Part shown: one piece after another, positions 2,343-8,992 of the stretch | How positions within the stretch are numbered: the stretch's first letter is position 1 | Layout: each line of letters starts with the position of its first letter | Assembly: GCF_055900595.2 (NCBI RefSeq) | Contig: NZ_CM148325.1 | DNA: 64,000 nt | Strand: one strand, 5' to 3' | The notes under the pieces: generated by a model | What the model saw: only the letters and a program-made list of their open reading frames with translations | Told to the model about the DNA's origin: nothing | Database searches by the model: none | Position numbers and translations under genes: made by a program

Positions 2343-3592
<1,250 letters not shown>

Positions 3593-3769
3593 TAGAGTAA
3601 GTAACTGGTTAATTTACATTCTGGTCGCGTGCGCAAATACGCTTTTCCTCACACAGTTGTCAAGTGTTACGTTTAGATAATTGCTATCCGGAAAAGCTTC
3701 TGCTATTTATAGCGGCCTCATTTTTCCCCCGAACATGGGGATCGATAGTGCGTGTTAAGGAGAAGCAAC

Positions 3770-4225
3770 ATGCAAGAAGGGCAAAACCGTAAAACATCGT
3801 CCCTGAGTATTCTCGCCATCGCTGGGGTGGAGCCATATCAGGAGAAGCCGGGCGAAGAGTATATGAACGAAGCCCAGCTGGCGCACTTCCGTCGTATTCT
3901 GGAAGCATGGCGTAATCAACTCAGGGATGAAGTCGATCGCACCGTTACACATATGCAGGATGAAGCAGCCAACTTCCCGGACCCGGTAGACCGTGCAGCC
4001 CAGGAAGAAGAGTTCAGCCTCGAACTGCGTAACCGCGATCGCGAGCGTAAGCTGATCAAAAAGATCGAGAAAACGCTGAAAAAAGTGGAAGACGAAGATT
4101 TCGGCTACTGCGAATCTTGCGGTGTTGAAATTGGTATTCGTCGTCTGGAAGCGCGCCCGACAGCCGATCTGTGCATCGACTGCAAAACGCTGGCTGAAAT
4201 TCGCGAAAAACAGATGGCTGGCTAA
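3770..4225 (+). CDS. dksA: RNA polymerase-binding transcription factor DksA
   Basis: ATG at 3770 preceded by AGGAG (3758-3762); 151 aa. C4 zinc finger CESCG...CIDC and an acidic coiled-coil region. The track ORF begins 6 codons upstream at a GTG. Confidence 0.95.
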
Positions 4226-4253
4226 TTACAGCCGTTCCATCACGTTTACCACA

Positions 4254-4281
4254 GGCGGGAAATGCTCCCGCCTTATTTTTT
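4254..4281 (+). terminator. Intrinsic terminator hairpin downstream of dksA (GGCGGGAAATGCTCCCGCC followed by a T-run)
   Basis: Perfect 7-bp GC-rich stem with a 5-nt loop, followed by TTATTTTTT, lying 29 nt after the dksA stop. Confidence 0.6.
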
Positions 4282-4291
4282 GTTCAACGAG

Positions 4292-5188
4292 ATGACAGAC
4301 ACACACTATATTGGTCGCTTCGCCCCCTCTCCTTCTGGCGAGCTTCATTTTGGCTCTCTGATTGCCGCGCTTGGAAGCTTTCTACAGGCTCGCGCCCGGC
4401 AAGGTCGCTGGCTTGTTCGCATTGAAGATATCGATCCGCCTCGTGAAGTTCCCGGTGCCGCAGAGACCATCCTGCGCCAGCTGGAACATTACGGTCTACA
4501 CTGGGACGGCGATGTTCTCTGGCAATCGCAACGTCACGACGCCTATCGCGAAGCACTCGCATGGTTACATGAGCAAGGGTTAAGTTATTACTGCACCTGC
4601 ACGCGCGCACGTATTCAAAGCATTGGCGGTATTTACGACGGTCATTGCCGGGAGTTGCATCATGGGCCAGAAAACGCTGCTGTACGTATTCGCCAGCAGC
4701 ATCCGGTCACCCAGTTTACTGACCAGCTGCGCGGCATTATTCATGCCGACCAAAAACTGGCGCGGGAAGATTTTATTATTCATCGTCGTGATGGTTTATT
4801 TGCCTATAACCTGGCGGTGGTGGTGGATGATCACTTCCAGGGCGTGAGCGAAATTGTCCGCGGGGCAGATTTGATCGAACCGACAGTGCGGCAAATCTCG
4901 CTGTACCAGCTTTTTGGCTGGCAGGTGCCAGATTACATTCATTTGCCACTGGCACTTAATCCACAAGGCGCTAAACTTTCCAAGCAGAATCATGCGCCTG
5001 CGTTGCCAAAAGGCGATCCTCGGCCGGTGTTAATCGCGGCACTTCAATTTCTGGGCCAGCAGGCAGAAACACACTGGCAGGATTTCAGCGTTGAGCAAAT
5101 TCTCCAGTCAGCCGTCACAAACTGGACGCTGACTACCATTCCTGAGTCGGCAATTGTAAATTCAACATTCTCAAATGCGTCATGCTGA
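4292..5188 (+). CDS. gluQ: Glutamyl-Q tRNA(Asp) synthetase (GluRS paralogue YadB)
   Basis: Translation [23 protein letters not shown]... with class I aaRS HxGS motif. ATG at 4292 is chosen over the track ORF start at 4262, which lies inside the dksA terminator hairpin. Confidence 0.85.
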
Positions 5189-5247
5189 GCTATGATTAGC
5201 CGCTATTTTTTTGTCCTGAATGATGTTTGACACTACCGAGGTGTACT

Positions 5248-6645
5248 ATTTTTACCCGAGTCGCTAATTTTTGCCGCAAGGTGCTAAGCCGCGAGGAAAG
5301 CGAGGCTGAACAGGCAGTCGCCCGTCCACAGGTGACGGTGATCCCGCGTGAGCAGCATGCTATTTCCCGCAAAGATATCAGTGAAAATGCCCTGAAGGTA
5401 ATGTACAGGCTCAATAAAGCGGGATACGAAGCCTGGTTGGTTGGCGGCGGCGTGCGCGACCTGTTACTTGGCAAAAAGCCGAAAGATTTTGACGTAACCA
5501 CTAACGCCACGCCTGAGCAGGTGCGCAAACTGTTCCGTAACTGCCGCCTGGTGGGTCGCCGTTTCCGTCTGGCTCATGTGATGTTTGGCCCGGAGATTAT
5601 CGAAGTTGCGACCTTCCGGGGACATCACGAAGGTAACGTCAGCGACCGCACGACCTCCCAACGCGGGCAAAACGGCATGTTGCTGCGCGACAACATTTTC
5701 GGTTCCATCGAAGAAGACGCCCAGCGCCGCGATTTCACCATCAATAGCCTGTATTACAGCGTGGCGGATTTTACGGTCCGCGATTACGTTGGTGGCATGA
5801 AGGATCTGAAAGACGGCGTTATCCGTCTGATTGGTAACCCGGAAACGCGCTACCGTGAAGATCCGGTACGTATGCTGCGCGCGGTTCGTTTTGCCGCCAA
5901 ATTGGGCATGCGCATCAGCCCGGAAACCGCAGAACCGATCCCACGCCTGGCAACCCTGCTAAACGATATTCCTCCGGCACGCCTGTTTGAAGAATCGCTT
6001 AAACTGCTACAAGCGGGCTACGGTTACGAAACCTATAAACTGTTGTGTGAATACCATCTGTTCCAGCCGCTGTTCCCGACCATTACCCGCTACTTTACGG
6101 AAAATGGTGACAGTCCAATGGAGCGGATCATTGAGCAGGTGCTGAAGAATACTGACACGCGTATTCATAACGATATGCGCGTCAACCCGGCGTTCCTGTT
6201 TGCCGCCATGTTCTGGTATCCCCTGCTGGAAACAGCACAGAAAATCGCGCAAGAGAGCGGCCTGACTTATCACGACGCTTTCGCGCTGGCAATGAACGAT
6301 GTGTTAGACGAAGCCTGCCGTTCACTGGCGATCCCGAAACGGCTAACCACTTTAACGCGTGATATCTGGCAGTTACAGTTGCGCATGTCCCGCCGTCAGG
6401 GTAAACGCGCATGGAAATTACTCGAACATCCGAAGTTCCGTGCCGCTTATGACCTGCTGGCACTGCGTGCTGAAGTAGAACGCAACGCCGAGCTACAACG
6501 TCTGGCGAAATGGTGGGGTGAGTTCCAGGTTTCCGCGCCGCCGGACCAAAAAGGGATGCTTAACGAACTGGATGAAGAACCGTCACCGCGTCGTCGTACT
6601 CGTCGCCCGCGCAGACGTGCGCCGCGCCGTGAGGGCACCGCATGA
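5248..6645 (+). CDS. pcnB: Poly(A) polymerase I
   Basis: Track ORF 5227..6645 recognised as PcnB (nucleotidyltransferase motif [17 protein letters not shown]; Arg-rich C-terminus). Annotated from the ATT codon at 5248 (IFTRVANF...), following the known non-AUG initiation of pcnB. Exact start is uncertain from sequence alone. Confidence 0.85.
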
Positions 6646-7118
6646 CAGTGGCGTATATTGCTATCGGCAGCAATCTGGCCTCTCCGCTGGAGCAGGTCAA
6701 TGCTGCCCTGAAGGCAATAGATGACATTCCTGAAAGCCGCATTCTTGCCGTTTCTTCGTTTTACCGCACCCCACCACTGGGGCCGCAAGATCAACCCGAT
6801 TACTTAAACGCAGCCGTGGCGCTGGAAACCTCTCTTACAGCTGAAGAACTCCTCAACCACACACAGCGTATTGAGTTGCAGCAAGGTCGCGTCCGCAAAG
6901 CTGAACGCTGGGGACCGCGCACGCTCGATCTTGATATCATGTTGTTTGGTAATCAGGTCATAAACACTGAGCGCCTGACCGTTCCGCACTATGATATGAA
7001 GAATCGTGGATTTATGTTGTGGCCGCTGTTTGAGATCGCGCCGGAACTGGTGTTTCCTGATGGTGAAACGCTGCAAGCAAGACTCACTACTTTCCCTCCC
7101 TGCCCACAGCACTGGTAA
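6642..7118 (+). CDS. folK: 2-amino-4-hydroxy-6-hydroxymethyldihydropteridine pyrophosphokinase (HPPK)
   Basis: 158-aa ORF recognised as FolK; its ATG overlaps the pcnB stop (ATGA), indicating translational coupling. Confidence 0.9.
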
Positions 7119-7621
7119 ACCACATTTCTGGAAAAGCGTATTGGGTAATGCAATGTTGTATAATATTATTTTATAGTTTCAATGAATTAATTCTCTCTCC
7201 CCCATCATAAAAATCACAAAAAAACAGCATTAAACATATAATTACGGCAAATATATTTTCATTACCTATATTAACTTTTCTCTTTATAAGAGGTTTTTAA
7301 TGATAATGAACCAGTTTATTCTGGGTACTATGCCTCACTCCCGGTATTAGCACTGGATAGCGCTTAACTGGATTCTGTCAGGCTGGGACGGGGCAACAAG
7401 AGCATACAACGACCAGTCCTTAACGCGTGATTATTAATTTCTACAGCGTATCATCATATTATTTAAATCTGCCCAACCTCACCAAATACATTCATAAAAT
7501 GCATAATGATAATAAATCATAAAATACATTCACCGAAGATATTTCTCTTTAAAGAGCGTGACATTTATAATAAGTATTGGTGAGAAAAATCACCCCCATT
7601 AATTTTTATAAGGATATTCCC

Positions 7622-8191
7622 ATGTTAAAAAAAAGTGCTATTGCTGCGGCATTAGTGATGTTCACCACTTCTGCTTTCGCGCTGGATGGCGGTCAATTAG
7701 ATTTCGCGGGTTTGGTGAGTGACAACACTTGCGTCTTGCACGTCAACGGTGGCGCCCAGGACGGTCAGATTACCCTGCAAACCGCCACAACCACTGAAGT
7801 TAATCAGGCCGGTGTTGTCCAACTTGCCAGCCCTGGCGCAAAACCGGAAGCCTTCTCTATTACGATCGATTGCTCGGACGATCCACAGGGCGCCTCTGCC
7901 AATCTGAGCATGGGTTCCGTGTTCTTCAGCAACAGTCAGGGCACTCTGAACAACGATCTCTCCATTAGCCAGGCGGCTACCGGGGTCGCGATTGCCATTC
8001 ACTACCTTACCGATGCCACTACCTACGAACAGATGAGAGTGAACGACAGCACTGATGTTAAAAACCTGCTGTTTACCAACGGCAAAGCGGTTTACAACTT
8101 TAAAGCGTCATATGTAAAACAGGCAGCAACAGTTAACGCAACGGCAGGTTATGTCAAAACCAACGCCGCTTATACAGTGACTTACCAGTAA
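7622..8191 (+). CDS. yadN: Fimbrial major subunit (type 1 pilin family), yad operon
   Basis: ATG at 7622 preceded by AAGGA; signal peptide MLKKSAIAAALVMFTTSAFA; pilin-like length and a C-terminal Tyr-rich beta-strand (YTVTYQ). The track ORF starts earlier at a TTG with no ribosome-binding site. Confidence 0.85.
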   Translation: MLKKSAIAAALVMFTTSAFALDGGQLDFAGLVSDNTCVLHVNGGAQDGQITLQTATTTEVNQAGVVQLASPGAKPEAFSITIDCSDDPQGASANLSMGSVFFSNSQGTLNNDLSISQAATGVAIAIHYLTDATTYEQMRVNDSTDVKNLLFTNGKAVYNFKASYVKQAATVNATAGYVKTNAAYTVTYQ

Positions 8192-8248
8192 ATATCTGCA
8201 TCACCCGACAGCCCACGGGCTGTTGGGTCACTCAATAAGGATAGTGTT

Positions 8249-8992
8249 ATGACCAGGATGTGTCAGTTTGTTGTTTCCACTGTTTTCGTCGCATCGACAG
8301 CCGTTTTCAGCCTCACCGCGCAAGCAGATATTGTGCTTTCCGGTACGCGCATTATTTACAATGCCGACCAGAAAGACGTCACATTGCGCATGGAAAACAA
8401 AGGTGCCCGTCCACTATTAGTTCAGACCTGGATTGATACCGGCAGCGAAAATGCCGACCCCAGCACACTGAAAGTGCCTTTTACCGTGACGCCGCCGGTT
8501 TCCCGCGTTGATGGTAAAAAAGGCCAAACGGTAAAAATTGCATGGAACGCCAGCCAGACCCTTCCAGCCGATCGCGAAAGCGTTTATTGGTTCAATGCGC
8601 TGGAAGTCCCCCCCAAGATGAGCGATGCCGATGCCAAAGGAAAAAACATTCTGCAACTGGCTTTCCGTACCCGTATCAAGCTGTTCTATCGCCCAACCGG
8701 TCTGGCGGGTAACCCGGCTGATGCACCAAAACAGTTAACCTGGCGTCTTCAGACTTCAGCCGGAAAAGTGGTGCTGCAGGCGACAAACCCAACGCCTTAT
8801 CACGTCTCATTCAGCAGTATTACCCTTGCCTCAGGCGGTAACAACTATACCGTGGAAACCAGTATGGTCGAGCCAAAAAGCAGTGCGGAAATGGTGGTAA
8901 AAGGCGCTCCCCATTCTGTGTCTGGCGCAACGGTTGATTACTCAGCCATAAATGATTTTGGCGGTGGAATTGACGGCAAAGTCAAACTTTGA
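8249..8992 (+). CDS. yadV: Periplasmic fimbrial chaperone (PapD/FimC family)
   Basis: 247-aa ORF with signal peptide and the PapD-like N-terminal fold signature (IYNADQKDVTLRMENKG...). Confidence 0.9.
   Translation: MTRMCQFVVSTVFVASTAVFSLTAQADIVLSGTRIIYNADQKDVTLRMENKGARPLLVQTWIDTGSENADPSTLKVPFTVTPPVSRVDGKKGQTVKIAWNASQTLPADRESVYWFNALEVPPKMSDADAKGKNILQLAFRTRIKLFYRPTGLAGNPADAPKQLTWRLQTSAGKVVLQATNPTPYHVSFSSITLASGGNNYTVETSMVEPKSSAEMVVKGAPHSVSGATVDYSAINDFGGGIDGKVKL

Follow-up and report, generated by a model that had tools for sequence, protein, structure and literature searches.

Only two genes of Escherichia coli, infC and pcnB, are confirmed to start at AUU (PMC5499595, PMC4447247, PMC9764084, bioRxiv 10.1101/063800). 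In both genes the AUU limits expression, and in infC, the gene for IF3, it also closes a feedback loop in which IF3 represses its own synthesis. To our knowledge, no feedback loop of the IF3 type exists for pcnB. Initiation of E. coli pcnB at AUU, with the consequence that synthesis of poly(A) polymerase I (PAP I) is limited, was reported by Binns & Masters 2002 (pmid 12068810), to whom the statements on pcnB in PMC2939334, PMC3561954, PMC5499595, PMC4447247, PMC9764084 and bioRxiv 10.1101/063800 attribute it. According to the account given in PMC2939334, that work overturned the promoter and the AUG, with its putative Shine-Dalgarno (SD) sequence, that Liu & Parkinson 1989 had assigned to the gene. 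The cell contains about 30-50 molecules of PAP I, the synthesis of which is limited by inefficient initiation at the AUU, and when the enzyme is overproduced, tRNAs become polyadenylated and the cells die (PMC3561954). The AUU start is one of the means by which this toxic enzyme is tightly limited, and phylogenetic evidence suggests that AUU starts occur in many Proteobacteria (PMC3561954). A rare ATT initiator likewise attenuates a costly protein in the case of Enterococcus faecalis ebpA (PMC4447247), an unrelated gene in an unrelated organism that offers an analogy of mechanism only.

Here we examine pcnB in a stretch of 64,000 nucleotides from contig NZ_CM148325.1 (assembly GCF_055900595.2), hereafter the window, whose coordinates refer to the + strand throughout. 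We conclude, with a probability of about 95%, that this pcnB is translated from the non-canonical initiator ATT (AUU) at 5248. The conclusion is a rediscovery and no discovery, since the AUU start of pcnB has been known since 2002 and is present in the reference annotation. The evidence for the window strain consists of sequence, annotation and comparison; the experimental basis for initiation at AUU, and for a rise in PAP I when AUU is changed to AUG, is the K-12 literature. A preliminary description of this DNA, made from the raw sequence alone, had nonetheless recovered one of the two confirmed AUU-initiated genes of E. coli, proposing ATT 5248 as the likely initiator, and the value of this lies mainly in a quality check. 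Its proposal coincides with the annotated K-12 start and with the literature, and its coordinates were all correct. Automatic ORF finders miss the ATT start: a form beginning at TTG is listed here, and related contigs are called with an upstream TTG, a GTG or a downstream ATG.

Identity and anatomy of the locus

The pcnB CDS (5248..6645) encodes poly(A) polymerase I of 465 aa plus the stop codon, as supported by the ORF, the annotation and NCBIfam. The protein scores 997.7 bits against the NCBIfam equivalog NF008634 (cut-off 702) and 525.5 against TIGR01942 (cut-off 305.65), and all models for CCA-adding enzymes fall below their cut-offs. Residues 1-464 align to positions 1-468 of the 469 in the NF008634 profile, and PDB entries 3AQK-3AQN cover residues 28-442. 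The ATT-initiated protein aligns from the first position of the profile, in agreement with the earlier suggestion from the translation that conserved PcnB begins at IFTRVANF.

In K-12 (NC_000913.3), pcnB is b0143 (157729..159126), with a CDS of 1398 nt beginning ATTTTTACCCGAGTC; ATT 5248 is the counterpart of its annotated start, and the CDS opens ATTTTTACC. Positions 5178-5277 of the window, which take in the last 70 nt before the CDS and its first 30 nt, match K-12 throughout. Over the whole CDS, which has the same 1398-nt length, nucleotide identity is 94.0%, and the proteins differ at two amino acids (V420A, K456R). Compared with the K-12 pcnB of Binns & Masters 2002 (Mol Microbiol 44:1287), this is the same gene, with ATT as first codon and the shared synteny sfsA-dksA-gluQ-pcnB-folK, and the two are separated by strain-level divergence only, none of it in the initiation region. 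The wider gene order, thpR-sfsA-dksA-gluQ-pcnB-folK followed by fimbrial genes, is also that of K-12, and the enterobacterial order dksA-gluQ-pcnB-folK found here recurs in L086 and L087, two distant loci. PGAP annotation also begins the gene at this ATT, both in the strain identical to the window (L001 2849 = window 5248) and in two further E. coli genomes, one of them O157:H7. The PGAP annotation was probably propagated from a curated family model and is not independent evidence.

The strain itself stands apart from most of its named species. Positions 4900-5700 are 100% identical to RefSeq NZ_CP098223.1 (E. coli Z0117EC0005) and 95-99% identical to nearly all other complete E. coli genomes, only 11 of 5424 reaching at least 99%. 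About 4.2 kb of the region is 94.6% identical to K-12 and approximately 91-94% identical to E. albertii, E. whittamii and other Escherichia representatives; the housekeeping region at 2748-8643 is conserved, yet its identity to K-12 is only 94.6%. From the 94.6% identity to K-12 and the mere 11 genomes at or above 99%, the window is, judged by sequence, a divergent Escherichia lineage filed as E. coli.

Direct reading of the window in the pcnB frame gives TGA (5221), TGT, TTG (5227), ACA, CTA, CCG, AGG, TGT, ACT and then ATT (5248), followed by TTT, ACC, CGA, GTC, GCT, AAT, TTT, TGC, CGC, AAG and GTG, so that translation from ATT yields I F T R V A N F. The in-frame stop TGA at 5221..5223 closes the frame upstream, leaving it open from 5224, and reading from this stop to ATT confirms the view taken earlier that TTG (5227..5229) is the only canonical in-frame alternative ahead of ATT. 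The initiation codon itself occupies 5248..5250 and, on the evidence of annotation, conservation and literature, is read as fMet. It is preceded by the SD sequence GAGGTG (5238..5243, or -10..-5 relative to ATT), a perfect 6-nt complement of the 3' end of 16S rRNA, and the spacing from GAGGT to ATT is 5 nt. A spacing of 5 nt between SD and start codon is optimal. The gene was also said to have no good in-frame ATG start, and this holds: the first in-frame ATG of the window is codon 52 counted from ATT (5401..5403), with an AGG just 2 nt away.

An RNA leader structure around the start is unsupported, as folding of 5203-5300 gave z = +0.91, which is less stable than shuffled sequences. A weak hairpin can pair the SD (5237-5243) with 5253-5258; its alignment columns are invariant and hence carry no covariation signal. 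An Rfam scan of 3500-7500 (E<=1) returned only a chance snoRNA match at 4001-4026 and none near the pcnB start.

Conservation in Enterobacteriaceae and the choice of start

We compared 80 loci, one genome per species, all from Enterobacteriaceae and at 86-100% protein identity, a sample that is phylogenetically non-independent. The codon aligned to 5248 is ATT in 80/80 species and in all 81 distinct sequences, and the hexamer at -10..-5 is GAGGTG in each of the 80 species loci. No constraint is visible on the 4 bases that separate SD from ATT, and the changes at codon -1 are non-synonymous (ACT, ACC, AAC, ATT, GCT, AAT and CCT, encoding Thr, Asn, Ile, Ala and Pro). Upstream of the SD, the 77 distinct upstream sequences are variable in length and contain indels that are not multiples of 3; from ATT on, the alignment is nearly invariant. 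Among codons 2-11 only five vary (3, 6, 8, 10 and 11), and their changes are exclusively synonymous, from which it follows that the stretch is translated. Protein-coding constraint, as read from this alignment, begins at ATT and not upstream. Within E. coli, the 61-mer at 5218-5278 is exact in 5416 of 5424 complete genomes, so that at most 8 could differ. These comparative data, with ATT and SD invariant in all species sampled and the 61-mer nearly fixed, only widen the documentation of the start.

Codon choice is constrained along with the protein. ATT at codon 1 is the sole invariant column among 19 conserved Ile columns, the others having major-codon fractions of 0.51-0.99, and of the 337 conserved degenerate codon columns just 4.2% never vary. 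Over codons 1-10 the major-codon fraction averages 0.95, compared with 0.72 for the gene as a whole. Codons 2-9 (5251..5274) are under unusually strong synonymous-site constraint and belong to the conserved initiation region. The GTG of codon 12 is likewise invariant in the 81 sequences, so that codon conservation alone does not dismiss GTG 5281 as a start.

These patterns bear directly on the competing starts. The mechanical ORF list gives a 472-aa pcnB from TTG 5227, two codons past the stop at 5221, and under such a reading ATT would be an internal Ile codon. TTG is a standard bacterial start codon, in frame and 7 codons upstream of ATT, and it is present at -21 in 26/80 species, in Escherichia, Citrobacter and some Kosakonia and Phytobacter, with ATG in its place in two Salmonella subspecies. 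However, no purine-rich SD lies upstream of TTG 5227 (gtcctgaatgatgtTTG), and the invariant GAGGTG is downstream of it, correctly spaced for ATT. A canonical in-frame start (ATG, GTG or TTG) between the nearest upstream stop and ATT is missing altogether from 43/80 species, 4/80 have an in-frame stop between -21 and ATT, and the stretch holding the 7 extra codons differs in length among the sequences and shows no conservation as protein. Were ATT an internal Ile codon, it should moreover show synonymous variation like the other 18 Ile columns, which it does not, and both RefSeq and the literature put the start at ATT rather than at TTG; we therefore reject TTG 5227 as a highly improbable start. 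The same region of the window contains two ATGs out of frame with pcnB, at 5220 and 5223 (ATGATG, 5220-5225), which open a 15-codon ORF ending at TAA 5265-5267 and might in principle act on pcnB by occlusion, coupling or frameshifting. This ORF (5220-5267) does span the pcnB SD and ATT, and, lying within the fixed 61-mer, it is unchanged in nearly every E. coli genome. It has, however, no SD upstream, and among the upstream sequences listed of the 77 distinct ones ATGATG occurs only in the Escherichia loci L003, L004, L005 and L012; Citrobacter has TTGATG, CTGAAG or TTGAAG at this position, and the other listed genera have unrelated sequence of different length. As the ATT and SD arrangement is conserved without this ORF, a regulatory role for it is barely credible.

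A different possibility is that a downstream start is used besides ATT to yield a truncated PAP I isoform, either from ATG 5401, for example on transcripts from the sigma-S promoter pS1, or from GTG 5281 (codon 12). ATG 5401 is probably the AUG proposed by Liu & Parkinson 1989. The promoter pS1 lies downstream of the AUU and is active with sigma-S, and two bands in anti-PAP I western blots have led to the suggestion of a shorter, AUG-initiated form (PMC2939334). Within the window, ATG 5401 is preceded by a GAAGG-like purine run, GTG at codon 12 is invariant, and synonymous constraint reaches 0.91 in codons 41-50. Against this, codon 52 is Leu in 57/81 Enterobacteriaceae sequences and ATG in only 24/81, the SD-like AGG is a mere 2 nt from the ATG, and a protein begun at codon 52 would lack residues 28-51, a conserved part of the crystallised core (28-442). 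GTG 5281 lacks a usable SD, the AAGG before it being directly adjacent to the codon, and coding constraint is already evident in the 11 codons ahead of it. The short isoform is called unproven by the authors who discussed it (PMC2939334). As the main start, a downstream codon is essentially excluded; ATG 5401 is not a conserved start and could at most serve a minor additional isoform, the existence of which we consider improbable.

Three side observations concern the same part of the alignment. In Salmonella enterica subsp. diarizonae and arizonae (L022 and L023), the in-frame ATG at -21 (2480-2482, in the context tta atg tAT Gac...) stands without an upstream SD, and GAGGTG and ATT are intact; an N-terminally extended form (MTLPRCA...) could conceivably be produced in these two subspecies. 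Codon 29 (5332-5334) is GTG (Val) in the window and ATG (Met) in approximately 89% of the Enterobacteriaceae sequences, and is the first in-frame ATG, at +84, in most genera; in the window it has no preceding SD. Codons 41-50 (5368-5397) form a second block of raised synonymous conservation, with a major-codon fraction of 0.91 against 0.72 gene-wide, in which CGCAAAGAT (codons 41-43, 5368-5376), just upstream of ATG 5401, is invariant in the 81 sequences. Possible reasons for this block are the pS1 promoter inside the gene and a pause site resembling an SD.

Proposed initiation mechanism and distant relatives

IF3 rejects AUU start codons. In the mechanism that we propose, the strong, optimally spaced SD GAGGUG (5238-5243) would position the 30S subunit at AUU, which pairs imperfectly with the initiator tRNA and would be discriminated against by IF3; imperfect pairing and IF3 discrimination together would make initiation inefficient, and inefficient initiation would keep the toxic PAP I at a few tens of molecules per cell. 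That inefficient non-AUG initiation keeps poly(A) polymerase low had already been put forward for this locus, in agreement with the literature crediting Binns & Masters 2002. Given this role of IF3, the AUU of pcnB would be dependent on, or sensitive to, IF3. We infer that the strong SD is what makes AUU usable at all, offsetting the weak codon far enough for PAP I to be made in small but dependable amounts. Later papers describe the pcnB ribosome-binding site as "poor" (PMC3561954 among them), a label that is at odds with a perfect 6-nt SD at optimal spacing and that the sequence, as we read it, does not bear out. In the supplements of the tetracycline ribosome-profiling paper PMC4909307, no pcnB entry was found.

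A more far-reaching and decidedly speculative idea, which we hold to be unlikely as a whole, is that the selected unit is an entire initiation module of about 37 nt (5238-5274), composed of GAGGUG, the free 4-nt spacer, AUU and eight codons that are nearly fixed at synonymous sites. The weak hairpin at 5237-5258, which would sequester the SD and leave AUU in the loop, might be one of its elements. Such a module might determine how much PAP I is made or tie PAP I synthesis to IF3 or growth rate, and its AUY initiator may persist far outside Enterobacteriaceae. If this were true, the pcnB site would not be a "poor" ribosome-binding site, contrary to the later papers.

Outside the 80 Enterobacteriaceae species, four loci were inspected (L085, L086, L087 and L089). 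The arrangement GAGGTG-N4-ATT is kept at 62% identity in L085 and at 67% identity in L086. The former, from a 1.08-Mb genome, reads GAGGTGtcctATTTTTACCCGAGT and is annotated from ATT; the latter reads GAGGTGtaccATTTTTTCC, and the gene caller chose a TTG 13 codons upstream. In L087 (1111-1203, 55% identity), ATC stands at the homologous codon behind a degenerate SD; the gene caller passed over it in favour of an ATG 24 codons further downstream, which has a good SD. In L089 (1140-1160, 48% identity), which reads AGGTGaacacaATCATC, the homologous codon is again ATC, and the caller took a GTG inside an SD-like AGGTG motif. In other representatives a canonical Met start falls only a few codons away from the homologous position and leads into a comparable amphipathic, basic segment. 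Non-canonical AUY initiation may thus, on these sequences, be wider than annotation shows, and the picture from these four loci is in line with the published suggestion of possible AUU starts in many proteobacterial homologues. L086 has two further peculiarities: its pcnB (1501-2998 of CP043324.1) is called in two pieces of 316 aa and 150 aa, pointing to a frameshift or a pseudogene, and a gagctatga-ggccgctattttttt motif occurs twice upstream of the gene.

Sequences flanking pcnB

Upstream of pcnB, a sigma-70-like promoter match (TTCTCA, 17-nt spacer, TATGAT) lies at 5168..5196 and spans the gluQ stop codon TGA (5186-5188). It is the only promoter-like site in 4700-5500, where shuffled sequences average 0.7, and most of the 77 distinct upstream sequences retain ATTCTCAAA and GCTGAGCTATGATTAGCCGCTATTTTT. 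The longer element at 5168-5212, ATTCTCAAA...GCTGAGCTATGATTAGCCGCTATTTTTTT, overlaps the end of gluQ and fits a sigma-70 promoter. Most genera conserve it; Salmonella and a few other loci (L020, L021, L035, L038, L073 and L075) have unrelated sequence in its place. The TTCTCA/TATGAT pair may be the published promoter pB, which would give a 5' UTR of about 44 nt; the pB hexamers were not found in the text of PMC2939334, and the equation with pB is for that reason one that we infer. A terminator scan found none between gluQ and pcnB.

At the other end of the gene, the 4-bp overlap with folK described earlier is present in the sequence and the annotation as ATGA (6642..6645), in which the folK ATG (6642-6644) and the pcnB TGA (6643-6645) share nucleotides. 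The folK gene spans 6642-7118 and has a putative SD, GAGGG, at 6631-6635, and the same 4-nt overlap is annotated in K-12 and in the strain identical to the window. To judge from its sequence, the junction is an ordinary overlapped-gene arrangement that is compatible with translational coupling.

The start of gluQ differs by record. In K-12, b0144 is 927 nt long (308 aa), which corresponds to ATG 4262 in the window. For the strain identical to the window, PGAP begins the gene at ATG 4292, the second one, which gives 897 nt and 298 aa.
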